Source: Reclinomonas americana ATCC 50394
Taxonomy: Eukaryota
Assembly (NCBI GenBank): GCA_048213135.1
Contig: PS015097.1
Span: 190,542 to 210,541, forward strand
Length of the DNA stretch: 20,000 bases
Direction: 5' to 3'
Shown: positions 1-19,895 of the stretch, in pieces
Layout of the letters: each line of letters begins with the position of its first letter
How positions within the stretch are numbered: the first letter of the stretch is position 1
The notes under the pieces: model-generated
Database searches by the model: none
Told to the model about the DNA's origin: nothing
Seen by the model: the letters and a program-made list of their open reading frames with translations, nothing else
Position numbers and translations under genes: made by a program

Positions 1-796
1 TCGGCAAACATGCCCAGCCGAGCAAAGCCACCAGTGTCGATCAGCTCAGGCTATATGCGCGCATGTACAGTCATACATGCAGCAAATGCATGCGCAGTTA
101 GTCATTCTCGCAATCAATCGTAGACCTGCGCATGCGCAGTGCATGCACACACGCACACACACAGTGCACGCACCGAGAGTGAAGTGGAACTCTCGGAATA
201 GATGAGTTCTTTGAGTTTGGATACATCCATGGAGCTGACCTGGCCCACCAGCGCTGCAGTGGCTGCCTCAATGATCTGCGTTGCAAGTGCCATGATGTGA
301 ACTCAAATATGCGAGTGTGTGCGCTGTGCTCAGTATAGAATTCGAACTGAGTGGAAACAGCAGTCGTGGTGATCAGAAACACGCCACCGACTGTTGTTTA
401 CTGGATGTTGTCTGTCCATTTGCCGGGAACGTTTTGATCATGATCCCTGCAACAAGCGCCTCTTCAGTGACGACTCGGCGACTGTTGTGCATCGGTGCAT
501 AAGATAGACGCTGCGCTGCGCTCACGAATTCTGTGCACTCGGAGGATACACGCTGCGCGCTTACATACATACAGACGTCTACAGACCGGTCGACTGCACA
601 CACGCGCAAGAAAGAGCTGCACTGCAAGCAGTTTAGAAGAATGGTGTGTGTGTGTGTGTGTGTGTGTACCAAATGTTTACGCACAACAACTCTCTACAGT
701 GCGTGCTTGTCGTGCTGCTTGTGATGTTTCTTGTGGTGTGCCTGCAGACAGACGTATATCTATATACTAGAACGTATACTCACTCGCGCTGTCAGG

Positions 797-1599: not shown

Positions 1600-3535
1600 T
1601 ACGATGTAGGCGACTCATACACGTCGGTGATGTACAACTCTGTAAGTGTGCAGGTGCCTACGTTATTGGCGATCACAACAAAAGGCATCGTACAGCAAGC
1701 CAGGAAGAAGAATACCTTAGCAGTGACCACAGTACTAGTAGACTTGCTCAGCTACCTGAGAGTCGACGAAAGCACCACACTTCCGCAAGGCCTTCCAGCC
1801 AGCAATGTGGCTCTTGGAGTAGAAGTGTGACATCGCAGGCAAAAAGCAAGAGGCAAGGGAAANNNNNNNNNNNNNNNNNNNNNNNNNNNNNNNNNNNNNN
1901 NNNNNNNNNNNNNNNNNNNNNNNNNNNNNNNNNNNNNNNNNNNNNNNNNNNNNNNNNNNNNNNNNNNNNNNNNNNNNNNNNNNNNNNNNNNNNNNNNNNN
2001 NNNNNNNNNNNNNNNNNNNNNNNNNNNNNNNNNNNNNNNNNNNNNNNNNNNNNNNNNNNNNNNNNNNNNNNNNNNNNNNNNNNNNNNNNNNNNNNNNNNN
2101 NNNNNNNNNNNNNNNNNNNNNNNNNNNNNNNNNNNNNNNNNNNNNNNNNNNNNNNNNNNNNNNNNNNNNNNNNNNNNNNNNNNNNNNNNNNNNNNNNNNN
2201 NNNNNNNNNNNNNNNNNNNNNNNNNNNNNNNNNNNNNNNNNNNNNNNNNNNNNNNNNNNNNNNNNNNNNNNNNNNNNNNNNNNNNNNNNNNNNNNNNNNN
2301 NNNNNNNNNNNNNNNNNNNNNNNNNNNNNNNNNNNNNNNNNNNNNNNNNNNNNNNNNNNNNNNNNNNNNNNNNNNNNNNNCACAACACCACCGTCAGCCA
2401 GCCGTCCGACCACCAGCGGAGGCTGACCAGCAGCAGCAGCAGCAGCCGGATGCACCTCCACACTGACACCCAACTTCAGAGCGTGCCCGAGAGTAACACC
2501 CATCAGATTGGAGCGAACAGCGCGGCGAGGAGCATTCGGATCAGTGGCCACTTGGAACCGAGTACCTGCATCAGAAGCAACCGCAGCAGCACCAGCCGGA
2601 AGAGCAACAGGAGACAGCAACACAGAGAAATTCCGCTGAGGCGAGTGGCAACTGGCAGCTGCTGGCAATTGACGTCTGTGACCTCGTTCGTCTGTGCCGG
2701 TACTTGGCCACCAAACCAGCAGTCGGCAACGGCGAGAAGTCATCAACACGACCACCGGCCGCCTTCACCGAGCAGTAGAGCATGTGCTCCGCCACACGGC
2801 GAGTCAGCGGACGGCGGTGTGTCAACAGCTTCACCGCCGAGTTGATCAACAGAGAGGCCGCTCGCTCCACCACAGAGCACAGGCCGCGACCACCTTTCGA
2901 CAGCGGAGTGTAGAGGAAGGGTGTGCCGGAGTCGTTGCCGAGGCCAAGGCAGAGTCGGATGCTGTCGCGGATCTTGCAGTCGATGTTGGCGAGCACGTCC
3001 GGCTGGAGCTCCACGGCCGACATGACAAAGGTGACCTTGGGGAGGACGAAGCAGCGAACGGCATCCACCTTCTGGAGCGGCAACAGCGACGACGACTGCT
3101 TGGTGGCCTCGATCGGAGTGAAGAGCTGCTTCTCCAGCATCTCCGCCACTTCAGCTTGCTTCTTCGCCTCGCTTGTACGAGTCGGTGAGTAGAACGGGTA
3201 GCCAAGCCAACGATCGCACTCAGTGATAGATGACATGGATCGCAACGCAGTGCCAGCCATCAGCAGCTCGGGATCGAACTCCTCCGCCACAAAGTTCTGC
3301 GCCTGCATTGGACCAGTTCGGCTTGTTCCGAGCACGCAGAGCCAGCACCAATGACTTCTGCGGGTTGTCGGCAATGCCAGACCACTCGGCCAAACGCTTG
3401 ACAGATCCAGCACCAGCTGCGCCTCACGAACGGAAGACACCACGTGACGATCATCGGCTAAAGCAGAAACACACAGGTGCACACCGAGTTGGAAAGAACA
3501 GGCTGTTGCCGACACGGCAGGCACCAGGGAGACGT
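1600..3535 (-). mobile_element. Degenerate restriction-endonuclease-type non-LTR retrotransposon (R2/NeSL/Utopia-like): RT C-terminal half and thumb, interrupted by a gap
   Basis: Minus-strand translation gives VSALADD (3450-3461, degenerate YADD-type motif) and a frameshifted AEWSGIADNPQKSL (GLxxNxxK-like). It continues RWLGY (KYLG-like), LLPLQKVDAVRCFVLPKV, IDCKIRDSIRLCLGL and FLYTPLSKGGRGL, which are typical of the R2-group thumb. Beyond the gap, HIAGWKALRKCG resembles the downstream HxxxWxxLxxQG linker but is followed by stops, so the left boundary is approximate. Confidence 0.75.
1863..2380. other. Assembly gap
   Basis: Run of N. Confidence 1.
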
Positions 3536-4660
<1,125 letters not shown>

Positions 4661-4768: not shown

Positions 4769-7700
4769 ATGCCTTGCCGCGACGACCATCGTGCAAGGCA
4801 CTGCCTTTACCACCGCACCTCCCCCTATCAACATCACCACCACAACCGCCGTCACTGGTCATTACTCTCACTCACCCTCCTGCTGACGGTGCTGCTAGTC
4901 GCCAGTCACTCCTCTGCTTCCGCCTCCACCTCCACCCCCCCACACAGCGTGTTTCTCAAGTCACGCGCATTCGAGGCCACACAGACGGACGCGCGAGTGG
5001 CACTGCACCATCCCACGCAAGTGGTGAGTATATGAGAGAGAGAGAGATAATGTGTGTGTGACAGAGAGCCAACGGCAAGTTCGGGTATTTCTCGCTCTTT
5101 CTCCTTCTCTCTCTCCCTCTCAGTCGTCATGCAGCTCCCCACATACACATACACACATCCTTACCTTCCCTATCTCCCTCTCACCTTCCCTCTCATTCTC
5201 TCATCATCCAATCACAATCATGTCCGAATCCGACTGCTGATGATGACTCGCAGTCCTTGTACCTCGTCACCGCCGACACGACCGAGGAGTCGCGTATTCA
5301 GTCGCACGTGCACGACGCCGGCACAGTGGAGACATGGCAGCGGTATCAGCGGGCACTTGATCAGCTCACGCGTCACGTGGCGGTGCACGACACGCAGGAG
5401 TGCCAGGTGGACTCACTGCTGGTGGCGCTGGCCTACGTGCCACAGCATACACGGATAGTGGCGTGCTCGGCTCGCACCGCACAGCAGCTGGCCTCGTTTG
5501 CGTCGGTGTCGGTGATGGAGTGGAGAGATCGGCTGTCGCGAGGTCTGTTGCGGCGGCTGGACGCCGACAGCGCCGACGCCTCGGCCGCTCTGCTGTGGGT
5601 CACGCTGGCCGAGGGAGTGCCTGCGGCGTGTCACGCGCATGTTGCCACTCCAGCGGTGACGCACAGCTTTACGCCACGGCGCGCCGATGCACCTGCCTCG
5701 TCGCTGTCGCTGCGTGATTTGGTCGCCGACGATTTGCTGGCGGTGCTGCCACACGGCGCCACCATCGTGGATACCACGCTGTCGGCGATCAGCGCATCAG
5801 CATCGCGAGTGCTCGTGTCGTGTTCGGCGTCGGCAATGGCGGCTTGTGTTCGCCGTCTCGCCGAGCACCCGCTGGTGTTGTATGTGGAGGAGGATCCGCA
5901 GCTGCGCCTGTTCAACGCGGCTGCGTCGTCTCGCATCCAGGGCGGCGGCACAACGACGACCACCATCCCGTTCTACGATCATGGGATCACCGGTGTGAAT
6001 GAGATTGTGGGCTGTGCGGATTCCGGCATTGATTACGACTCGGCCTATTTCCGCGACTCGTTCAGCGACCCCGCCAGCCCGCTGTTCTCCACCAGTGGGA
6101 CATCGGTGGACTCGAGTGCCCGCAAAATCATTGCGTACCAGTTGCGTCTCTGCATCGTGCCCCCGCTGCGAGCGAGACGGCGGATCTCATTGACTGTGCA
6201 GAGTGTTTGCCGATCGACTGGACGACGGTGATGTCGGCCACGGCACACACGTCTCCTGCACTCTTGTCGGCAGTCCCGTCGGCGGAACAACAGCCTCGTG
6301 GGCTTTTCAGTATCACGGTGTCGCGTATGGAGCCAAGATGTTTTTCCAGGACGTGGGCTTCAGCAGCGGCGAGGCGAGTGAAGTGTTGCCGGAGAAGAGT
6401 GAGTGTGTCGATCACTCATCCGCGCGTCCACAGAGTCTTGCCGTTCCGCTAGATTCGAGTACCCTGTTTACGGCACCCTACAATGCTGGTGCTCGTGTTC
6501 ACTCGAATTCATGGGTATGTGTTTCCCACAACGCTGAATGTGTGTGGCTCGGTTGTCGTTATTCATTCGTGGTTTGCGCGTGTTGCAGGGATCCTCCGAC
6601 CAGGAGTACTCGTCCATTAGTTCCACTCTCGACAATTTTGTGTGGAATCACCCCACCTTCCTGCCCGTTGTGGCGGCCGGCAACAGTGGCCTATCGGGTG
6701 CTTCCACCATTGCCATGCCCGGCAGCGCCAAGAACTGCTTGAGTGCGTTGTTTTTCCCTTCCTCGCAATGGCTTTTGTTTCCTGAATCCTCGCCCCCTTG
6801 CCCAAAAACAACGCGCAGCTGTTGGAGCCGCGGAGAACTCGTACCTCTACGTTGATGGTGTGACACCGCTGGTGGGCTCACAGACGCTGTCCACGGCCAC
6901 CTCGCTGCCGATCGGCAAGGGCATTTTTGTTACTCCGACTTCGGGTGCGTGCTCGCGCGCGTCACGCTTGCTTCTTTCTGCTCAACGCTCATCACACATC
7001 ATGTGCAGGTTGTGTGACAATCTCTGGAGCCAAGGGTCGCATCGTGTTCCTCTCCGAAGGCGACTGCACACTGCGCCAGAAAACGGCGACGGCCAAGGCT
7101 GCTGGTGTCGCAGTTACGAGAGGCTGCTGCTGCTGCTTAGACTCTGCCTCGTACTCACGAGATATTGTGATGCGCAGGGCGTTGTCATCCTCAGCAGTTC
7201 TCTCAGTTTTGGCAGCGAGGATCTCTCCGATTTGCAGCTGCCGGTTGTGCTCGTGCAAGACAGTGTGACACTGCGATCGGCCGTGGCCGAGAATCGCGAC
7301 ATTTCGATTGTTGCTCGTACGTCACTGCCCATTCAACGTTTCCTGTTTTTTCGATTACTCACATGCCTGTTTCCACCACAGGTGGCCTCTTGTTGTATGG
7401 CGTGTCGGCTGTGAATCCGAGTGCCGTGGCGTCGTTTTCGAGTCGAGGCCCGACATTCGATGGTCGTCTCAAACCAGAAGTCCTTGGTCCCGGTCGCTAC
7501 GTGGTCAGCGCCGACAGCGATGGTGCTATTGATATGTCGTCGCCGGGCTCGGTGGCAGTCAAGGGTCTCGAGGGAACCTCCATGGCCACACCCGGTACGC
7601 TCCTCGTGGCCTGGATGCATGCGTGCATGTGTGCGTGCATGCTGACTTGTGCTGCAGTGGTCGCTGGCGCCGTGACACTCATGCGGCAGTACTTCCGCGA

Positions 7701-10149
7701 CGGTTGGTATCCAAGTGGCGCGCCGCAGGCTTCCGATTCTCGCGTTCCGTCGGCTGCGCTCCTCAAGGCACTGGTGGTGGCCGGTGCACAGCCACTCTCC
7801 GGCGCCAATTCCGGAGGTATGTTGTGTTTGATCAGCAACCGGGAGGGAGAGAGTCTCCTGGTCGCTGATGCAATTTGTCGCTGGTTGATAGGGTCCGTGC
7901 CAAACACCACACAAGGCCACGGTATCCTGCAACTCGATCGCGTCCTGCCGTTTGCCGACAGCAACCCCGACTTTTCGCTGCTGGTCTTCGACTCCAACAC
8001 GATTACGGCGAACTCTGAACAGTCTCAGTGTTTCGATGTCAGCAACTCGGGCGTCTATCTTGCGGTGTGTATATGGATGTCCCTGTCTCACTCCTTTCAT
8101 CTTGCCTGGCACCTCCCGCTTATCGCGCGCGCACCAGGTGGCCATGGCGTACATGGACTTCCCGGCGTCGACTTCCGCGTCGACCGTGATTGTCAACGAG
8201 GTCAACTTGAAACTCGAACTCCCCAACGGCACCACTCGCTGGGGCAACAGTCGATCTACCTCTGACACAGTGCGTATGCTGATGGCGGCCAGCGATGCGC
8301 GGTGCACTTTTTTCTCACTTTTTGCTTGCTATGCAGCCGGACTCGTTGAACACGGTGGAGAATGTGCGCCTCGATTCGCCGCCCGAGGGTCGCTATCGCA
8401 TCACAGTGGCCGCAGGGCCGATTCCCCACGGTCCACAGCCGTACGCAATTGTCGTCCGCGGTGCAGTGGCCACTGCCACTTGTGGAAGTTGTGTACATTG
8501 CGGCACTGTGTGATCGGTGCATGCATTCGCTGACAAGTGTATTCCAACTTGTCAGACACCTGCCCCGGCACACCCGAGTGCAACGGCAATGGTCGATGCT
8601 CATTCAGCAGCTGCATCTGCAATGTGCGTACCCTTTGTGTGGTGACAGAAATCGTCGTTCTATCTCGCTGACCCTCGACACAGGCTGGATATGAGCCCGG
8701 CGATTGTTACACTCGTTGCGGTGTTTTACCTCGTCGCAAGCGCTGCCATGTGTGCGCTAACTCGTTTTGCGCGCAGCAATGACGGTTATTCCGTACGGGG
8801 CGCGTGTTGTGCGCTCACTGAACAGCAAGACACTCGACTATATCAAATTCCGCCCGTCGCTCACTCCCAGTTTCGCTTGCTTCACACGCGCGTCGTCACG
8901 TACTGATCGCACGCTCACTGAAGAACAGATGCCACTCGTGCTGCCGGAGAGGAGCTGCGAGCGGTCGCCGTGCCTGTGCGCATCATACTGACGCAGGTGG
9001 CGGGCGACGCTGTGCCGCAGCTGCTGATTCGCGTCGGCGCAGCGCCGACACTAAGTGCGTACTTGCGCGGAGTGACCACGTCGGGCACCACTCGAGTTGG
9101 GTCGTGTCATTGCAGCAACCTCTTTTTCTCCCTCTCTCACACACACATACACTCACTTCACGCGCTGGGTTCGGCAGACATACAATGGACAGTTTTCCGT
9201 CACCGACGACGTGTACGTTGCTGTGGCCGTGACCGGCACAGATCCGAACACCATGTACAGTCTGGAGGTGCGTGACTGCCAAGGCTGCTCCTCTCGCACG
9301 TCGTTCTGTCCGGACATTCGTTGCATTGTTGCGTCACATGACGACTCTACCGTATGCTATGTGCCTGCCTCTGACTTATAATAACTGTACTCTCTTTTCA
9401 CAGGTGACCCTGGCCAGTGGCATTGTGATTGGTTGCCTGATTGTGGTCATTTCGCTGCTGTGTTGTCGCTGTTCGCGAAGGCAAGCGGTGAAGAACAAGG
9501 TGCGTTTGTGTGCGGCCGTACATCGCACCGGCTGTCCGATGTCTCACTTTGCCCGTGCAGGAGTACGGCCTCTTGTTGGAGGCACGTTCATCTCGGCAGG
9601 CGTCGTCACGTCGCACAAAGATCACGCCGACTGGAGTGAGTGTGTGTGTGTGTGTGTGTTTCGTGCAACTCTTCGCGCTTCTCGACATTTTAGTGACTGT
9701 CGATGTGGGCGCGCAGACGACGGCAGATGGTGTTGCGATTGGTGGGGACGCCATCAACAACAACTTCCAAGTTGTTCATCGCGCCGGCGATATTCCCCTC
9801 GTGGAGCTCGTTACGCCACCACCGCCACTTCCACCACCGTATGGACATCATCACAGTGCACTGCGCGGTGCAGCCGAGGTGCGTGTGTGTGTGTCACCGC
9901 GTTCACATCCAGGAATTCACACGCTGACGATTCTCTCCCAACGCACAGGCGACCCACTTGCCTCTGTCGGTGCCACTGGTCGAGTTGCACAGCGGTCATC
10001 CGTCGCTGGTGGTCGACGTACACAGCAGTGCGCTCTCGCCACGTGCGTACACGCAAGGAAACGCTGTGATTTATCACACGGGGCCGCCACCATCGTCCGT
10101 CGGCGACGTGTACGATCCGCACGCTCTCCTCACCCCAACCGCCTCGTAA
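4769..10149 (+). CDS. Type I membrane subtilisin-like S8 serine protease (TagA/Kp43-like catalytic domain) with PA insert, C-terminal beta domain, EGF-like repeat, TM helix and cytoplasmic tail; about 1262 aa, 22 exons
   Basis: Exons: 4769-5023, 5254-6140, 6202-6373, 6434-6514, 6589-6742, 6819-6944, 7009-7112, 7178-7316, 7382-7594, 7658-7816, 7892-8064, 8138-8269, 8337-8487, 8556-8623, 8684-8714, 8777-8869, 8929-9095, 9178-9327, 9404-9499, 9561-9635, 9717-9878, 9949-10149 (3789 nt, in frame). Motifs: signal-like LLSLTLLLTVLLVAS; catalytic ADSGID, HGTHV, AAGN and GTSMATP; ARVHSNSWG; FSSRGPTFDGRLKPEV; PA-like KGRIVFLSEGDCTLRQK; EGF-like CPGTPECNGNGRCSFSSCICNAGYEPGDC; TM VTLASGIVIGCLIVVISLLCC. 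Confidence 0.9.
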
Positions 10150-10227
10150 TAATAATGTAATCACTGAATAGTTCTGCTGTTTATATTTTCCCTCCTGCCC
10201 CGTTCCCGATGCACCCCTAGCAACTAA

Positions 10228-12640
10228 CTACTCCTCGGCGTACGAGGCCAAGAGCGCCAGTGCATCTGACACATCATCAGAGGACAAGGCCGGCGCTGCT
10301 GCTGGTGCAGCATGGGCGGCAGCCGCCGGTGGTGCCTTGCCACCTGCTGGCTTGTGATAGTAGCGCTCATCGTCATCGGCCTCCCACGCTGTCTCGCCCT
10401 CCATGCCAGGCTACATAACACAAAACCACACATATAGCAGGCCACTGTCAGTATCTCTGTGCTGGCAGACGCGAGTGCGTGCACGCAACTGCTGCCGAGG
10501 CCTGGGTAGTGGTGGTCGTGGTGGTGGTGGAGGATGATGAACCGGACGCAGCGCCCGGGTACGCATAATTGGCGTATCCGGCGTACATGTACGCGGCAGC
10601 GGCAGGCAGCGCGTAGAACTGACCGTCGGCGCCCACGTAGCCCGCCATCATCGGCTGCTGGTAGTAGGCACCTGAACCGGCGGCGGGTGCGGGCGGTGGA
10701 GCAGGTGCCGCTCCTGGGTTGGCGTGCACATACTGCGCGTCGGTATTGGGGTACAAGTACGTCTGCGAGCTGGGATTGTGCACGAGATCGTCCACTTTTT
10801 GTCGCTTCAGATCCGGCTCCGGCACGTCGTACTGTGAGGGGTAGTTGAAACCGGTCTCCACTGTGCTGGCCATGGACGCCTGAATGGCCGCCGCCACTCG
10901 GTCCTCCTTCTTTTGTGCCTCGCGCACCACCACCGTTGGGTTGGGGTCGTCGGTGGCCCACTTGATGTTCAGCACCTCGTCGTTGCCGAGCGACTGATTT
11001 GTCATGGCCTCCTTGCCGAACTCGGCACCCACGCGATACACGTAGCGCACAAAGGCGAAGCCGCGCTCCGCGAACACCTTGACTGTGGGTGGGGAAGTGA
11101 GGGAGAAGGGGGGAGTGAGGAGAAGAGATGGGGGAAGAGAAGGGAAAGAGCAAGGGGGAGAGAAGGGGAGAGAAGGGGGAGGAGAAGGGGGGAGGAGGAA
11201 GGGAGGAGAGGAGGAGAGGAGGAGAGGAGGAGAGGAGGAGGAGGAGGAGGAGGAGGAGGAGGAGGAGGAGGAGGAGGAGGNNNNNNNNNNNNNNNNNNNN
11301 GGAGAGGACGGAAGGGAGAGACGGAAGGGAAGTAGGAAGGGGAAGAGTAGAAGGGAGAGTGGAGGGAGAGTGGAGGGAGACGAGGGAGACCGAGGGGAAG
11401 ACGGAATGGGGAGGAGCAAGGGGGAAGGGGGAAGAGCAGGGGGAAAGGCAAGGGGGAAGAGATGGAGAGAGGGGGAAGAGCAAGGGGAAAGGGGGAAGAG
11501 ATGGGAGAGAGAGGGTAAGAGAAGGGGAGAGGAGAAGGGGGGAAGACAAGCAAGAGAAGACACGCCAGAATACTAGAACAAGAGAACTGACAGGGACGCA
11601 CGAAGAGAGGCTGAGGTTGGAAGAGAAAGAATGCAAAGACCGCAAGGACAGTGATCGAGTGTCGACCTGATTCATCAACAAAGAGTCCAGACGCAACGTT
11701 CTTCAATTTGACCCCACTCGCCGAATTGATCGAGCAGTGTTTCCTGCAAGAAGAAAGCAACAGAGTGAACAAACACACATGCCACCACTCCGTGCAGTGC
11801 ACGCTTCACACCCACCGCCAGGCTGACTTTGTACAAATTCTTGATGCCACCAATGTAGAGGGTGCGATTCTCGCGATTGAAGGTGCCGACACCACCCATG
11901 TCCTCACGATCAGCCCTACACACATGCATCAGCAAACGATGAGAGAAGAGTGAGTGAGCGACGAGGGAGTGGCGGCGGCCCACTCACGAATGTCTCTCAC
12001 GACCGAAAATGTCGTGAATGTTGGCCAGCTTCAGTTCGTCGTCCTCATTCGGCAAGTGATGCTTGTACAGGCATTCGTAGCCCTGCACTCACGCACACAC
12101 ACATAAGAGACGCTGCCTCCACGACCATGGCTGTCACCTTCTACGACTCAACTCGGCAGCACTGTCCACGCGCAAAATGCACGCAAAAGAACGATCCCTC
12201 ACGCGTATCGCCACGAGTGCGCCCGGCGTCACGCAACACATTGCATCGCGTCTCAGCCGCACTAGGTACACCCGCAAAAAAAATAATCAGTGCCCACAGA
12301 CAACTCGCACACACAATCGAAATGCATTTGCCACGCACACTCGATCCTTCTCCTTCTTGGCGCGGAATCCGCAAAACTTGCCGTACCCTGTGCACCACCG
12401 CATGAGCGAGTGGAGGGGGGGGGGCGCAAAGAGAGACGACACAAGAAAGAGACGCAACAGATGTTGTAGTACAAGCCCTCCTCTTCCTCAGTTGCTTGAC
12501 GAGCCACCGGTTGATCAACCTGAAATCGATGATGATGATTCAGACTCCAAAGACAACTCCAGAAACAACGACTGCTGCGTCTCTCTCTCTCTCACACACA
12601 CATTTGCACTCATTTCTTCCAATCCTTCTCCAAATTCCTT

Positions 12641-12695
<55 letters not shown>

Positions 12696-13580
12696 TCCGT
12701 CTTCNNNNNNNNNNNNNNNNNNNNNNNNNNNNNNNNNNNNNNNNNNNNNNNNNNNNNNNNNNNNNNNNNNNNNNNNNNNNNNNNNNNNNNNNNNNNNNNN
12801 NNNNNNNNNNNNNNNNNNNNNNNNNNNNNNNNNNNNNNNNNNNNNNNNNNNNNNNNNNNNNNNNNNNNNNNNNNNNNNNNNNNNNNNNNNNNNNNNNNNN
12901 NNNNNNNNNNNNNNNNNNNNNNNNNNNNNNNNNNNNNNNNNNNNNNNNNNNNNNNNNNNNNNNNNNNNNNNNNNNNNNNNNNNNNNNNNNNNNNNNNNNN
13001 NNNNNNNNNNNNNNNNNNNNNNNNNNNNNNNNNNNNNNNNNNNNNNNNNNNNNNNNNNNNNNNNNNNNNNNNNNNNNNNNNNNNNNNNNNNNNNNNNNNN
13101 NNNNNNNNNNNNNNNNNNNNNNNNNNNNNNNNNNNNNNNNNNNNNNNNNNNNNNNNNNNNNNNNNNNNNNNNNNNNNNNNNNNNNNNNNNNNNNNNNNNN
13201 NNNNNNNNNNNNNNNNNNNNNNNNNNNNNNNNNNNNNNNNNNNNNNNNNNNNNNNNNNNNNNNNNNNNNNNNNNNNNNNNNNNNNNNNNNNNNNNNNNNN
13301 NNNNNNNNNNNNNNNNNNNNNNNNNNNNNNNNNNNNNNNNNNNNNNNNNNNNNNNNNNNNNNNNNNNNNNNNNNNNNNNNNNNNNNNNNNNNNNNNNNNN
13401 NNNNNNNNNNNNNNNNNNNNNNNNNNNNNNNNNNNNNNNNNNNNNNNNNNNNCGAACGGACGGCGTCGGCCGAACGAAGTAGTAATAGGTCGTCGTCGTC
13501 GTCGTACGTACTACCGCCTCGTCCGTACCACACTACTTCACTCACTCTTCTACTACTCTCTACTACCTCCCCTCCCCTCC

Positions 13581-13621
<41 letters not shown>

Positions 13622-13764
13622 TGCTTTGGGGCCTTGCGCTTTCGCCAGTCAAAGCGCAACGGATGCGTCTCATCAATCGGCTTTCCCGCGTACGACACAC
13701 CCGGCGGTCCCTTGCGCAACCCGCCACCAGAACTCGAAATCGGCGCACGAGGAGCAGCACTCAT
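10228..13764 (-). CDS. CWC2: Pre-mRNA splicing factor CWC2/Cwf2 (Torus/CCCH zinc finger + RRM; RBM22-related); about 459 aa
   Basis: Exons (minus): 13764-13621, 12519-12459, 12387-12339, 12261-12153, 12082-11988, 11915-11816, 11743-11698, 11082-10490, 10410-10228 (1380 nt, in frame; an extra exon could lie in gap 12705-13452). Motifs: YNIWYGKF, AETRCNVLRDAGRTRGD, FCVHFARGQCCRGYECLYKHHLP, DIFGRERH, REDMGGVGTFNRENRTLYIGGI, AEFGKEAMTNQSL, EVLNIKWATDDPNP. Confidence 0.92.
11088..11600. repeat. Polypurine/polypyrimidine low-complexity tract including (GGA)n, inside a CWC2 intron; contains a 20-N gap at 11281-11300
   Basis: Almost only G/A on the + strand; (GAG)n at about 11232-11280. Confidence 0.9.
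12650..13618. repeat. (CT)n microsatellites flanking assembly gap 12705-13452 in CWC2 intron 1
   Basis: (CT)n at about 12650-12691 and 13585-13618. Confidence 0.9.
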
Positions 13765-14157
13765 ACTGAAAGAAAGAAAACGCGCGCGTGTGTGAGAGAG
13801 TGAGAGTGATGGCCATTTCACAAACACACACGCACGCACGCACTGTGGAGACAAGGCACACACGCGCGCGCTGAGTGACTTGCACACACACGCACACGCA
13901 CGCACACGCAAAGACGCAGAGAAGAGCGTGCGAACAGGGAACAAGAGACAACACAAACTCGACTCAAATCACACACTGCACACGAACGCGCACACACACT
14001 CCCCACACACACACACTCTCTCTCGCACAACACACACACGCGCGCACACACCTTGCCGCGAACTGGTGGGTTACCGATGCAGAAGTTCATTCCCACGCAG
14101 CGTCCCGGTAGCCCCGACGGACACCTTTCACGCACTCTTACTTTCACACACACAAAG
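13765..14157. promoter_or_regulatory. 393-bp divergent intergenic region, probable bidirectional promoter and 5' UTRs
   Basis: Lies between the CWC2 ATG (13764, -) and the RRM-gene ATG (14158, +); CA/CGCA-rich. Function inferred from gene arrangement only. Confidence 0.55.
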
Positions 14158-16113
14158 ATGGCCAGCGCCTCTTCTGGCGGAGGCGGAGGCAGTGCGTCTT
14201 CGCCATCCGCGGGATCCCCGACAACAGGAGCATTGTCAAGTGATGCAGGTTTTGTTTTTTGTTTGTTTGTTTTTGATGCAATCATGTCTTCTCTCTCTGT
14301 GTGGTGCTTAACAGTGAAAAAATGGACAACACACCACACAGCGAGCAGTGCGGCTGCGAATTTGAGGGTTCCTGCAGGGCTTGACACAAGCAGCTGCCAG
14401 AGTCTGTTGCGTTGTTGTTGTTGTTGTTGTTGTTGCGCGCCATTTTCCACTCTCGCACCCCTCTCTTGCTCTCTCTCGCTCACTGTCACTGTCACCACGT
14501 GCATGCTGTTTGCCTGTCTCTGTGTGTCTTGCTTGCTGCATGTGCGCTGCGTGTGTTGCACATTGCTTTTTCTCCGCGCGCTCAGTGTGTGTGTGTGTCT
14601 TTCTTGTCCTTCTCTCTTTCTCTCTCTCCCTCTCTCTGTGTGCGTTGCTCTCTGTGCATGCGTGCGTGTGTGCAACGCACCACTCCGTATTGCACTTGTT
14701 TCAGAGTGATGCACTCGTCATTTATTGTTATTGCTCGGGTCAACGCACGCGCGCGTGCACAACGACATTCTCTCTTCTCTCTTTCTCTCAGTCTCTTCTC
14801 TCCCCGTCTCTTCGCCCTATGCTCTCCTCACGTGTGCATGCATGGTCGCTTATCATTTGTTGAATCTTACATTCGGTCGCGCACAGTTACATTGGCAACC
14901 TCGACCCGCGTGTCGATGAGGCCACGCTGCAAGAGTTCTTTAGCTCACTGTCGGTGAGCGGCACCTGCAAGATCATTCGCAATCGCGCGGTACGTGAGAG
15001 CGTGTGTATTGTGCGCGTGTGTTCGGTTCTGTATCTCTCTCTCTCTGACGCGGGCGCAGCAGAATGGCGAGAGTCAGGGGTACGGTTTCGTTGACTTTGA
15101 CGATCACGAGTCGGCTGCACGCGCGCTGAGTAAGCTGGAAGGGCAGCGCGTGTTTGACCGCGATCTCAAGATCAACTGGGCCTACGCGGGAGCCACTGGC
15201 CAGCGCGAGGACACCTCGAGTTGCGCATCTTTGCTCTCTCTCTCTCACACACACACACACGCACACAGGCAGGCAGCTCTGCTCATAGCTCCTTTGTTGC
15301 GGCGCAGCGCACTTCAATCTCTTTGTGGGCGACCTAAGTCCGGAGGTGACAGATCACGTCTTGTGGCAGTTCTTTAGCGATTTTGGCAGCATCAGCGATG
15401 CCCGTGTCATGTGGGATCATGCCACGAAGAGATCGCGTGGTTTTGGTTTTGTCTCGTTCCGGGAAAAGGCGGTACGTCGCCGTGTATGCCCGTGGTTTCT
15501 ATTTTACACTGCGAGCTGATGATTTTCACTCCACTCGAAACAGCATGCGGAACAGGCGCTGGCCAAGATGAATGGTTTGCTCTCTGTGCACCGCTTCTCC
15601 TCCCCAGTCTGTACGTCTCTTTTTTTTGAAATCAATGCCATGCGCGCCGTGCTCCACCAGGTGAATGGCTCGGTAGCCGCAACGTGCGTGTGAACTGGGC
15701 CAATCAGAAGCAGAATTCGCGGAATGCAGCGGCCGCTGCGGCCGCCGCGGCCGCATCCTCCGGTTCACCCGCAATGATACCGGTGGGTCACGGTCCGCAG
15801 CCGTTCCACCAGCACCACCATCATCATCATCACCACCACGGTGGACATCCGCACCACCACAGTCCTGCTGGTGTTGCGGGAGGCGCCAGTGGAATGGGAG
15901 GCGGCGGTGGTGGCAGTGGCGGTGGTGGCAGCGGTAGCGGCGGCCATGTCGGCAGCAGTGGAGGTGGCAGTGGTGGTGCCGTTGGCGCGCATGGCATGTC
16001 GTCGGTGGCCGGCGGACCAGGTGGCGTTGCCCCTGTGTCTCCGGGCCTTGTGGGCGCCGCCGGCGTCCCTCCTGCAGGTGTCGGCGCAGCAGCAAGTGAG
16101 TCGCTGGCTCTGC

Positions 16114-16163
<50 letters not shown>

Positions 16164-17364
16164 TGCGTGTTTGGCCCGGTGGTGCTCACGTGTGACTGGC
16201 GGTGGCGATGTAGGAAATCTGCAGAGCGATTTTTGGAGCGTGTACCGCGCCAGCCCGCAGACCAACACAGTGGTCTATGTCGGAAACTTGCCGCACGAAG
16301 GCACCACGGAAGATCTCTTGCGCGCACACTTCGCACCCTTTGGAAATGTGATTGAGGTGCGGTTGCAGCCGGAGAAGGGCTTCGGTTTCCTCAAGATGGA
16401 CACACACGAGTCGGCGACGCAATGCATTGTGAACATGAACGGCACCGTCTTCAACGGACGACCGATTCGAGTTGCGTACTGTGCGGCGTGTTCTGGTGGT
16501 GGCTGGTAGTTGGTGACGCTCACATCTGCACGCAGTGCGGATGGGGTCGCGATCGAGCTGCACCTGCTGGCGGCATGCACGGTCGGCAGCAGCAGCAGCC
16601 ACACGGTGGCTTCGGGTACGGATACCCACAGAGTTATCCGTACGGATATCCACAGGCGTATGGGTTTGTCAAAAAAAACAAATGCAATTTCTGCAGTTGT
16701 TGCGCAGCAGCTGACGTCGCGCCCGCAGTTACGGTTACGGCCAGCAGCCCGGTGGACAAGGGGGAGCGCCGGGTCAGGGACCATCGTCTCCGCAGGCTGC
16801 GTCTCCGCTCAGCGCACTCCCGGGACTCAGTGTGGGTGTCGGCAGTGCACTAGGCAGCCACCCGGGTGGCGTGGTTCCGCCGCCGCACACTCACAGTGGT
16901 GCGATGCACCCACACTCGCCGTCGGCACTCGAACTGATGCCGCCTCTCGGCTCTCTCGGCGGCGCCCACTCGCCGCCACCCGGAGCACTCGGTGGTGCTC
17001 CGTCGCTCGCCAACGGTGCCGCCATGTCGCCGTCAAGTCCCGGCGCTGCCAACGCCGCTGGAGGAGACCCCAGTCACTATGTTGCGTTCGGCAGTGGGGG
17101 AGGTGAAAGAGTGACAAGTGTTCTCATCTCGCGCACGTGGTGGTGTCACAGCCGTACTTTTATGGCTACTCGTATCCCACGTACTACGGGTACCCGAACT
17201 ACGCCGCCCACACGCACTCGCAGCCGGCGCCAGCGCACGCAATAGCGGGCGGTGTCTCTGGCGGGCACGGAAATGGCGTGTCCTCGGGTGGCGGTGCCGG
17301 TGGAGCCGGTGGCAACGGCGGCAGCGACGGTCATTCCGCGCCGCCGCAGTTGACCCTCGAGTGA
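14158..17364 (+). CDS. TIA1/TIAR-UBP1-Pub1 family oligouridylate-binding protein: 3 RRMs and a prion-like C-terminus; about 653 aa, 11 exons
   Basis: Exons: 14158-14248, 14378-14405, 14887-14989, 15060(or 15063)-15219, 15308-15471, 15544-15574, 15661-16095, 16214-16470, 16536-16663, 16729-17080, 17152-17364 (in frame). Motifs: [107 protein letters not shown]. These closely resemble plant UBP1 and fungal Pub1. Confidence 0.92.
16118..16160. repeat. (GA)n microsatellite in intron
   Basis: Dinucleotide run inside intron 16096-16213. Confidence 0.95.
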
Positions 17365-17753
17365 CGCGCCTCTTGCATCTCTAGTACTTCCTATGCATAT
17401 GCATGTGTGTGTAGACCGTTATTGTGTGTTTGTTGTTGATGTTGGCGTGTGAGAGGGTGATTTTTTTCAAGTTGCGTCGTTGGAACTGCCGCTTTCGCTG
17501 CGCGTCGTGCGTGCCAGTCATCGCTGACTGGCGACAACAAATTTGTTCCTCCCTCTCCGCAGTTGTGCAATGGACTGTAAGTGGACTCGGGAGGCTAGCC
17601 GATGTCATGGCGCGGAATGAGCGAGTGTTTTGCTGTGTGTGTGTGTGTGTGAGCGTGTTGTGGGAGTAGGTGTGGTGAGAGTGTGAGAGAGGAAGCAAGT
17701 CGGTTTGGCGGATGAGCCGTGTTGTACCAAGACAACAGAGCAGAAACAGTGTG

Positions 17754-18475
17754 CTATGGGGGTTTCACTTTTCCCTTGCCAAGCTGCTCGTCAATCAGCA
17801 CCTTGACCTGCTCCAGGAATGTCCATACTTGCTCGTCGCTCGCGGTTCCGGTGTCGCCAACGCCGCCTCGTAGTCTGCCCAGACGAGTGCACTTTTAAGA
17901 TGCCGCCGCCGACAGCACGACAAGCAACGCAGAGTACCTGGCATCGCTCAGCGCCTGTGTGACCTCGCGGCAAATGTGACTGCGCATCGTCGGGTCCGGC
18001 ACCGCCGCCATGCCCTCCAGCACCTCCTGCGCCAACAACACGCGATCCCAGCGGCGGTTGAGCTGAGTCAACGAGTTGTCGTGGTCAGCGGATCCCTGTT
18101 CACCAATAGTACTGCGAATGGCATCAGCGAGGGAGTGAGAGCGAGGGGCGCGGAAGCCGGCGGACGCAACGCAGCCACCACCGCCCGCACATCCTGCTCC
18201 GCTTGCAGCAGATCCAACTTCCGATGCAACTCGGCACGGGTCATCTCCATTTGCCCACTGCGTGGCATGAGAATCGCTGCGAGCACCACAGTGCCTCCGT
18301 CCTTCTGCACACACGCAACTCGCGAAAGAACCATCCCATCGGCACCGACAAGGCCAGCGGATCTGCACCAGTCTCCACGACTGTGCCACCTGCTCGCTGC
18401 TCAGATCCCTGTCGCTCATGCCGATCGCTGAGGGCACGCTGCAGCTCCGAGAAGAAGTTATCCTGCATCGCGTGA
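17754..18475 (-). CDS. Hypothetical helical protein, at least 4 exons; 5' end uncertain (may extend to about 18633)
   Basis: Exons ~18475-18320, 18257-18171, 18111-17938 and 17874-17754 join in frame through 59-63 nt introns: HAMQDNFFSELQRAL...GWFFRD/GQMEMTRAELHRKLDLL...VVAA/TIGEQG...WDRVLLAQEVLEG...R/LRGG...VWTFLEQVKVLIDEQLGKGKVKPP*. Confidence 0.65.
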
Positions 18476-19119: not shown

Positions 19120-19806
19120 TAGAGACTGACGGGCATAGCGAGAGAGGAACGAAAAGAGAAATAGAGTGACAGACAGAAAGAGTGGAACGATGGCGGAGAG
19201 AAGCGAGGGGGGAGGGAGGACAGAAAGGGGAAGACAGACAGCGAGGGTGAGAGAGATAGAGAAGTGAGAAAGTGAAGAGAATAGAAAGGGCGGGACGGAA
19301 GGAAAGACAGAGAAGGAGCGCAGCGAGAGAGGAACGGAAAGACAGACGAGTGACAGTGACAACGGCAGACAGAAAGAGTGGAACGATGGCGAAGAGAAAG
19401 AGAGCAGAGAGGGGGAAGGGAAGAATAGTTAGAGGAAGACAGACAGCGAGGGTGAAAGAGATAGAGAAGTGAGAAGAGAAAGACTGACGGGAACAGCGAG
19501 AGAGGAACGAAAAGAAGAAGACAGAGTGACAGTGACAACGGCAGACAGACAGAGTGGAACGATGGCGAAGAGAAAGAGAGCTGAGAGGGGGAAGGGAAGA
19601 ATAGTTAGAGGAAGACAGACAGTGAGGGAAAGAGAGATAGAGAAGTGAGAAAGTGAAGAGAATAGAAAGGGCGGGACAGAAGGAAAGACAGAGTGACAGT
19701 GACAACGGCAGACAGACAGAGTGGAACGATGAAGAGAAAGAAAGCAGAGAGTGAGGAGGGAATAGCTAGAGGAAGACAGACAGTGAGAGAAAGAGAGATA
19801 GTGAAA

Positions 19807-19810
<4 letters not shown>
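19120..19810. repeat. Degenerate purine-rich tandem repeat, about 4 units of roughly 170-200 bp, intronic
   Basis: Recurring blocks AGAGTGGAACGATG (about 19179, 19376, 19552, 19719), GAGTGACAGTGACAACGGCAGACAGA and GAGATAGAGAAGTGAGAA. Confidence 0.85.

Positions 19811-19812
<2 letters not shown>

Positions 19813-19895
<83 letters not shown>
19813..19895. repeat. (GA)n microsatellite
   Basis: Dinucleotide run. Confidence 0.95.

Follow-up and report, generated by a model that had tools for sequence, protein, structure and literature searches.

Recognition of a 5′ splice site by U1 small nuclear RNA (snRNA) in a shifted register, or in a register with a bulge at +2/+3, has been described at rare human sites (Tan et al. 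2016, PMC4856993; PMC11162779). At the shifted sites (Roca and Krainer 2009, as reported in PMC4856993 and PMC11162779), the intron is cut at the GU, the U1 helix lies one nucleotide downstream, and canonical pairing is poor. The model site in Table 2 of PMC4856993, ACA/GUCAAGUAUA (a slash marks the exon-intron boundary throughout), has A at -1, and G(+1) replaces G(-1). The bulge +2/+3 register (Roca et al. 2012; Tan et al. 2016), in the same accounts, applies to sites with one extra U after the GU and a remainder equal to the consensus, and it keeps the pair between exonic G(-1) and C9 of U1. Both registers are known only as rare human exceptions, studied one minigene at a time. Here we describe, in 20,000 nucleotides of Reclinomonas americana ATCC 50394 (contig PS015097.1, positions 190,542 to 210,541 of the forward strand; "the window," numbered from its first base), introns whose donors read GTTGCGT or, more broadly, GTT[GA]NG. 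They make up ~40% of the modelled introns: 16 of the 40 in coding sequence and, once a candidate in a 3′ untranslated region (UTR) is included, 17 of 41.

The GTTGCGT donors resemble the human shifted sites in their cut at GU, in the poor canonical pairing predicted for them, and in the A that the model site carries at -1. They differ in that the human sites are rare and have an AAGU box (PMC4856993, PMC11162779), whereas the window has a strict GTTGCGT at ~40% of introns, including a C that cannot pair with canonical U1; the U1 pairing here is one that we infer. With the bulged human sites they share the extra U after GU, but not the exonic G, which precedes none of the 16 coding donors of this class. 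We concluded that GTTGCGT is a genuine second class of GT-AG donor, most likely read by U1 one nucleotide downstream of the normal register, and we give this reading a probability of roughly 0.5. What is new is the share of introns, the consensus of their own and the implied tolerance of U6 snRNA; the kind of site is known from the rare human ones.

The window has 17,871 called bases (57.6% GC) and 2,129 N in gaps adjoining microsatellites. Gene models were built by hand from open frames, GT..AG boundaries, CT[GCA]A[CT] branch-like motifs and CAG or TAG acceptors, and they were tested by translation. The DNA is eukaryotic; its introns are short and of the GT-AG type, with a median of ~70 nucleotides (nt), and most have the branch-like motif 11 to 30 nt 5′ of the acceptor. 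Our sample is four gene models in one window, with 40 coding introns and one putative 3′ UTR intron:

4769-10149, plus strand: gene 1, an S8 subtilase of 1,282 amino acids with a PA domain, an EGF-like module and a C-terminal membrane span; 20 modelled introns, and the model translates as one open frame.
10228-13754, minus strand: gene 2, a Cwc2-like splicing factor; N gaps interrupt it, and its 5′ part is uncertain.
14158-17364, plus strand: gene 3, a TIA1/PUB1-like protein of 675 amino acids with three RRMs; 10 modelled introns and a full open frame.
17754-18468, minus strand: gene 4, 176 amino acids of no recognised family; 3 modelled introns, upon whose removal alone the open frame arises.

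Pfam searches of single exons matched Peptidase_S8, PA and RRM_1; in gene 4, two exons were searched and gave no Pfam match. Single-exon protein searches with a word index returned one match each, and the ESM Atlas returned generic RRM clusters only. We graded as uncertain the introns at 9096, 9328, 14249 and 17471 and a Cwc2-like intron at ~11827-11744; the last has three in-frame donor options (with A, G or T at -1) and was excluded from every count. A dynamic-programming gene finder of our own, which had no donor model and used codon log-odds, later supplemented by bonuses for acceptors and branch motifs, either fused short introns or overlooked them. It was too weak because frames remain open in this ~58% GC sequence. 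Once the bonuses had been added, it chose intron 6141-6201 unaided.

Donors were sorted by regular expression. Among the 40 coding donors, 16 match GTT[GA]NG (the "shifted" class, 10 of them exactly GTTGCGT), 19 match GT[AG]NG (standard donors), and five are of other types (GTTTCGC, GTTTTGT, GTTTGCT, GTTTGTC and GTACTC). Shifted introns occur in all four genes and in all three codon phases. They are listed here with the last exon base before the slash and the evidence for each junction; the 3′ UTR candidate is included.

6140-6147, plus strand: A/GTTGCGT, intron 6141-6201; the RKI..Y-to-GHG spacing matches S8 homologues within one residue.
7112-7119, plus strand: A/GTTACGA, intron 7113-7177; AGVA/GVVIL aligns gaplessly with AGGA/AMLVY of homologue P0031, and the PA-domain match stops at the end of the preceding exon.
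8487-8494, plus strand: A/GTTGTGT, intron 8488-8555; the exon finishes with TATCG, in alignment with the conserved C-[GS] at the close of the homologous domain (partial support).
8714-8721, plus strand: C/GTTGCGG, intron 8715-8776; based on frame, a CTAAC branch-like motif and CAG only.
9095-9102, plus strand: A/GTTGGGT, intron 9096-9177; ambiguous, with an in-frame alternative at 9072 (A/GTGACC) that leaves A at -1 either way.
9327-9334, plus strand: T/GTTGCGT, intron 9328-9403; in-frame alternative at 9268 (G/GTGCGT), 60 nt upstream.
14405-14412, plus strand: T/GTTGCGT, intron 14406-14886 (481 nt); its removal restores QS-L-YIGNLDP, gapless against homologue P0001, and no other in-frame GT lies within 60 nt on either side.
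15219-15226, plus strand: A/GTTGCGC, intron 15220-15307; gapless against EDTSKHYHIFVGDL of P0001, with no in-frame alternative GT.
16470-16477, plus strand: A/GTTGCGT, intron 16471-16535; GRPIR/CGWGRD is gapless against GRPIRCSWGKQ of P0001.
17080-17087, plus strand: T/GTTGCGT, intron 17081-17151; frame only, in a low-complexity region, with no in-frame alternative GT within 60 nt.
17470-17477, plus strand: A/GTTGCGT, putative 3′ UTR intron 17471-17561 (91 nt); motifs only (GTTGCGT, CTGAC, CAG).
18313-18320, minus strand: A/GTTGCGT, intron 18319-18258; restores the frame of gene 4.
18164-18171, minus strand: C/GTTGCGT, intron 18170-18112; restores the frame of gene 4.
12452-12459, minus strand: T/GTTGCGT, intron 12458-12388; YNI-W-YGKF matches YNIWYGK of homologues L001-L009.
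12146-12153, minus strand: A/GTTGAGT, intron 12152-12083; the zinc-finger spacing FARGQCCR/GYECLYKHH is gapless against FARGRCARGSDCTWFH.
11691-11698, minus strand: C/GTTGCGT, intron 11697-11083; GQIEE-L-KVFAERGFAFVRY equals the length of GEVEHINVISSKNLAFVRY in L001.
10483-10490, minus strand: A/GTTGCGT, intron 10489-10411; joins two frames of the Cwc2-like C terminus, with no in-frame alternative GT; frame basis only.

All 16 coding introns of the shifted class restore the reading frame when modelled as GT..[CT]AG introns. Seven of the junctions (12458, 12152, 11697, 14406, 15220, 16471 and 7113) lie in gapless alignments with homologues, so that donors of this class sit at junctions confirmed by homology, and two more (6141 and 8488) have partial support. 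Four of the 16 donors are the sole in-frame GT within 60 nt in both directions, and a donor-like alternative in frame exists for a single donor, 9328. The alignments come from three sets of homologues. Seven S8 proteins from a full HMMER scan, including P0031 and P0075, support junctions 6515, 6743, 7113, 7595, 8065 and 8270 of gene 1 and, more loosely, 6141 and 8488. A 504-amino-acid TIA1-like protein, P0001, gave a gapless blastp alignment across 14406, 14990, 15220, 15472, 15575 and 16471 of gene 3. The spliced model of gene 2 is gapless at its junctions against the intronless homologues L001-L009 (nine metagenome contigs); these also support the standard junction 11987 (FGRERH-S-ADRED).

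The heptamer itself is in excess. GTTGCGT occurs 12 times in the window against 3.74 +/- 1.99 expected, and a count of 12 was reached in 0 of 200 shuffles. Eleven of the 12 copies are modelled sense-strand donors, versus 7 of 39 copies of GTGCGT. The one non-donor copy, at 12231-12237 on the minus strand, follows a T and lies in frame within a conserved Cwc2 exon (CNVLRD), where it might act as a decoy or as a cryptic site. Among the matches listed by a full-text literature search, GTTGCGT, GUUGCGU and GTTGCG appear only in primers and unrelated uses and are not described as a donor. Shifted and other introns are alike in length (median, 70.5 versus 71 nt) and also in the distance to the branch motif.

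The base before the cut separates the two groups. At the 16 coding shifted donors the last exon base is A in 9, T in 4, C in 3 and G in none; at the other 24 donors it is G in 15, A in 5, C in 2 and T in 2. A reading made earlier from the sequence only had reported A 10, T 4, C 3 and G 0 for 17 shifted donors, which we reproduced exactly by including the UTR intron at 17471 (A). It had also reported G at 16 of 24 standard donors; the richness in G was borne out, with a count here of 15 of 24, and adding the minus-strand donor at 173, which lies outside the range of that reading, would give 16 of 25. The non-shifted donors, with their -1 bases, are as follows:

Gene 1, plus strand, standard: 5024 G, 6515 G, 6743 A, 6945 G, 7317 C, 7595 G, 7817 G, 8065 G, 8270 A, 8624 T, 9500 G, 9636 A, 9879 G.
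Gene 1, 8869-8876, plus strand: A/GTTTCGC, a borderline donor (intron 8870-8928) with G at +6 like the shifted class, counted as "other."
Gene 2, minus strand, standard: 13620 G (its intron spans a gap), 12338 T, 11987 C.
Gene 3, plus strand: 14249 G (GTTTTGT, unconfirmed), 14990 G, 15472 G, 15575 G (GTTTGCT), 16096 A, 16664 G (GTTTGTC).
Gene 4, minus strand: 17937 G (GTACTC).

A Fisher test of -1 base against donor class, which the sequence-only reading had proposed, gave p = 3.6e-5 over the modelled introns (G in 0/16 versus 15/24). The value was 1.9e-4 against the 19 strict GT[AG]NG donors (11 with G), 3.3e-4 with the doubtful introns reassigned in the worst case (0/14 versus 15/26), and 3.1e-5 with the UTR intron (0/17 versus 15/24). 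For a broader class defined by GTT with G at +6, which takes in 8870 and 14249, G(-1) was found in 1/19 versus 14/22 (p = 1e-4). The single exception that had been named, CAG/GTTTTGT at 14249, exists, and the intron there is a candidate.

The robust part of this result is that shifted donors lack the preference of the others for G(-1) and are enriched in A. A precedes 9 of 16 shifted donors but 3 of 47 non-donor copies of GTT[GA]NG (p = 7e-5), and the enrichment also stands against a background of 20% (p = 0.0016). We thereby confirmed that GTTGCGT-type donors occur without an exonic G and usually follow A. CGA precedes 5 of the 16 shifted donors, in differing codon phases (TCGA at 9096, 15220 and 16471, GCGA at 18319 and CCGA at 12152), and the recognised motif may extend to CGA/GTTGCGT, in a sample too small for a test.

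The proposed mechanism would be as follows. GTTGCGT can be seen as the usual GT[AG]NGT in which a single additional U separates the cleaved GU from the GCGU box. The 5′ end of U1 would pair one nucleotide downstream of its normal register, so that intron G(+1) would lie opposite C9, normally the partner of exonic G(-1), and exonic A(-1) would lie opposite U10. Positions +2, +3, +5 and +6 of the usual register would then be filled by U(+3), G(+4), G(+6) and U(+7), respectively. Cleavage would be set at the only GU by U5, U6 and Prp8, and U6 would also have to tolerate the extra nucleotide, with the G that pairs with U6 six nucleotides from the cut instead of five.

We scored the donors against the canonical U1 5′ end printed in PMC4856993, which may not be the organism's own. 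For the canonical, +1-shifted and U(+3)-bulged registers, every sub-helix was enumerated and given a nearest-neighbour energy with ViennaRNA. Standard donors in the canonical register had a mean of -6.2 kcal/mol. For GTT[GA]NG donors the means were -0.06 (canonical), -1.05 (shifted) and -0.46 (bulged) kcal/mol; on this comparison, also proposed in the sequence-only reading, the shifted register is best on average, but it gains only ~1 kcal/mol over the canonical one. The -1 base discriminates better. When the intronic pairing of non-shifted donors is close to nil (above -1 kcal/mol), G(-1) is present in 4 of 5, and these weak donors with G(-1) include G/GTTTGCT and G/GTTTGTC; the latter, at 16664, lies at exactly -1.0 kcal/mol of intronic pairing. 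None of the 16 GTT[GA]NG donors has canonical intronic pairing either, and G(-1) is found in 0/16 of them versus 4/5 of the weak non-shifted donors (p = 8e-4). This favours the shifted register over one with a bulged U, since the latter predicts enrichment of G. A(-1) may contribute to recognition: A precedes 5 of 6 imperfect and 4 of 10 perfect heptamers, a direction that fits (p = 0.15).

The shifted-register interpretation is thus partly supported: the pattern at -1 favours it over the bulge, but the U1 energies are weak, and several further results weigh against it. Seven of the 16 shifted donors form no stable duplex in any register, and all seven have C or T at -1; the small gain of the shifted register comes from A(-1) only. 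Replacing the -1 base by G in silico brings the canonical or bulged duplex to -4.3 kcal/mol. It would therefore bind better, and U1 stability alone cannot explain the missing G. The avoidance of G that had been claimed is strong as a contrast with other donors but marginal against background: G precedes 9 of 47 non-donor GTT[GA]NG sites (Fisher p = 0.097 against 0/16) and 19% of all GT dinucleotides (binomial probability of 0/16, 0.03). The suggestion that A(-1) mimics A(-2) of standard donors is not borne out in the window, where A is not enriched at -2 (A 6, G 5, C 5 and T 3 of 19). G(-1) of the shifted class (0/16) differs only marginally from G(-2) of standard donors (5/19; p = 0.049), and shifted donors have no preference for C at -2 (C 5 and G 6 of 16). 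The shifted class has GC at +4/+5 in 12 of 16 donors versus 7 of 19 standard donors (p = 0.04), and this C faces a pseudouridine of canonical U1, a mismatch. The greater strictness at two variable positions hints at a partner with G opposite the C. All of this rests on 40 introns in four gene models that we built ourselves, from one window.

A bulged-U register is a rival reading. U1, and later U6, would pair normally with G(+1)U(+2) and loop out one U, with the -1 pattern due to some other cause. The shifted donors look like consensus donors with one nucleotide added between +2 and +5, as bulge registers are described in PMC11162779, and exactly one extra nucleotide is found there (GT-T-GCGT versus GTGCGT). 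Table 3 of PMC4856993 gives the +2/+3 bulge register for 68 predicted human sites, and U6 would need such a bulge anyway because its pairing G is at +6. However, the G(-1):C9 pair would be retained, so that G(-1) would be expected at least as often as in the other donors (15/24) and the weak ones (4/5), and it is seen in 0/16. The bulged register is also the weaker one by energy, both with canonical U1 (-0.46 versus -1.05 kcal/mol) and with a hypothetical GC-adapted U1 carrying U5G+U6C (-4.7 versus -6.4 kcal/mol; standard donors reach -8.9). We regard a bulge as doubtful. The bias at -1 could alternatively arise apart from U1, through contacts made later, such as A-U pairs between U5 loop 1 and the end of the exon that offset a strained U6 contact, or through coding, composition or chance. 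Here the marginal absence of G relative to background and the failure of U1 energies to explain it count in favour, as does the account in PMC11162779 that U5 and U6, not the exact position of U1, define the cut. The strength of the A enrichment over background and of the contrast with G-rich weak normal donors argues against it, and with all three codon phases represented, a single codon effect is unlikely. We consider this origin of the bias improbable.

The U1 of this lineage might instead be its own, with a changed 5′ end or a second paralogue complementary to AGUUGCGU. GTTGCGT would in that case be the proper consensus of this RNA and not a weak site that canonical U1 reads out of register, but its position with respect to the cut would be shifted all the same. 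Canonical U1 yields essentially no duplex at the 7 sites with C or T at -1, and the strictness of the heptamer (10/16 exact) and of GC at +4/+5 is in keeping with such a partner. The class is far commoner than the validated human non-canonical registers, which PMC4856993 predicts at 1.5% of sites, and an alternative U1 with a changed 5′ end is reported in the diplonemid S. specki (PMC12621601). The latter is a precedent for a second U1 that matches unusual donors, although, as it is described in that source, the variant carries a run of C and is unrelated to the GTTGCGT motif. Purely hypothetical U1 ends would pair with the shifted class at -4.4 kcal/mol (C8A), -6.4 kcal/mol (U5G+U6C) and -10.7 kcal/mol (all three changes). 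Against this, a scan of the window with Rfam gathering thresholds gave 0 matches and hence no snRNA gene there. The 5′ end of U1 (canonically ACUUACCUG) is among the most conserved segments of eukaryotic RNA, and GTGCGT donors are frequent in GC-rich genomes with an ordinary U1. A U1 peculiar to the lineage seems to us unlikely, though less so than a bulge. As for artefact, whether introns mis-modelled or an extra T introduced by sequencing or assembly, the gene models were built by us from genomic sequence, the assembly is gapped (2,129 N), and four introns (9096, 9328, 14249 and 17471) are graded as uncertain. Yet seven shifted junctions are fixed to the residue by homologue alignments, one heptamer is repeated 12 times in sense orientation across four genes, and an intron error would not track the preceding exon base (p = 3.6e-5). 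The case made in the sequence-only reading against a random TT sequencing artefact was therefore upheld by both the motif excess and the link to the exon base, and we consider artefact very improbable.

U6 would also have to accommodate the extra nucleotide of these donors. The non-canonical U6 register at the tandem donor of STAT3 (PMC11162779) indicates that the distance from the cut to the G paired with U6 can depart from five nucleotides. At STAT3 it is one shorter (G at +4) at one site, and in the account of that source a one-shorter U6 register is the only one reported so far; in the window it would be one longer (G at +6), at many predicted introns. A further-reaching possibility, which we raise as speculation and think unlikely, is a major spliceosome with two registers. 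About 40% of introns would carry the pairing box one nucleotide further from the cut, read by a U1 paralogue of their own whose 5′ end is complementary to AGUUGCGU (one example being C8 changed to A on a GC-adapted end) together with a tolerant U6 and Prp8. If true, the U2-type system would hold a second donor code, heritable and in force across the genome.

A major class of shifted type, interleaved with normal donors, would offer a natural system for the sliding of U1 and U6, the fixing of the cleavage site, and the co-evolution of snRNAs and donors. Gene finders trained on GTRNGT would miss or misplace about 4 in 10 introns; a donor model for this sequence needs two classes with separate exon-side weights.

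Two other identities for the shifted introns were considered and rejected. An introner or mobile-intron origin was rejected in that the shifted introns have no sequence in common beyond splice signals: mean local alignment scores were 8.0 for shifted-shifted, 7.9 for shifted-other and 7.8 for other-other pairs. One pair, 9096 and 15220, scored 26, which probably reflects CA/CT-rich tracts in both introns. U12-type introns, spliced by the minor spliceosome, begin with /RTATCCTT and carry a branch site resembling TCCTTAAC. They were rejected likewise, with [AG]TATCC in 0 of 40 donors.

Not every donor that starts with GTT belongs to the shifted class. In gene 3, G/GTTTGCT (15574-15581, plus strand) and G/GTTTGTC (16663-16670, plus strand) begin with GTT yet carry G at both +5 and -1. 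In appearance they are sites of the canonical register in which U occupies +3/+4, and they form an internal contrast to GTTGCGT. They resemble the human GUUUGG sites with G(+5), for which a canonical register with U-pseudouridine contacts is described (Tan et al. 2016, PMC4856993).

Further features of gene 3 concern introns that we list as candidates:

14248-14255, plus strand: G/GTTTTGT, candidate donor of intron 14249-14314, which is 66 nt long, in frame, without a stop codon and T-rich.

An open frame therefore cannot confirm splicing of 14249-14314. The putative 3′ UTR intron 17471-17561 begins 107 nt past the stop codon, and, if it is spliced, the TIA1-like mRNA could be exposed to nonsense-mediated decay.

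In gene 1, the donors at 9268 (G/GTGCGT) and 9328 (T/GTTGCGT) are in the same frame, 60 nt apart, and share one acceptor (9268-9403, plus strand). Use of the downstream donor adds 20 residues with five cysteines directly before the membrane span. The two may serve as alternative 5′ splice sites, one of them a standard and the other a shifted donor.

In gene 2, intron 11697-11083 (minus strand) is 615 nt long, against the usual 60 to 90 nt, and is filled with a purine-rich (GGA/GAGG)n repeat (as read on the plus strand) and a 20-N gap. Homologues of Cwc2 are encoded on 16 metagenome contigs, with at most 73% identity over short stretches, and 9 of the 16 lack introns. Those on L011-L014 (for example, L012 5190-6330) are split at three positions equal to those of introns in gene 2 (behind RH/S, behind GG[IV]K and ahead of the RNP1 strand), which points to Cwc2 intron positions that are old and held in common. 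The donors read in L012 are GTATGT, GTACGT and GTACCA. In a crude motif scan, intron-like GTTRNGT sites numbered 0-1 per strand in the Cwc2-bearing contigs versus 11/22 in the window. These contigs are too distant to date the origin of the GTTGCGT class.

Several observations concern the rest of the window. A purine-rich tandem array at 19305-19895 (~176-bp unit, 3.2 copies, 82% matches), followed by (AG)61, lies upstream of an acidic, lysine-rich last exon (minus strand, ~19058-18750). Long (CA)n tracts stand on both sides of the N gap at 3539-4660. An open frame of 309 amino acids at 2574-3500 (minus strand) adjoins N gaps and a CA microsatellite and has no Pfam match; a guess that it derives from a retroelement gained no support. 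At 1-293 (minus strand) there is another gene start, with an ATG at 293 and 40 codons, followed by a G/GTGCGT donor at 173 and candidate acceptors at 126 and 51.

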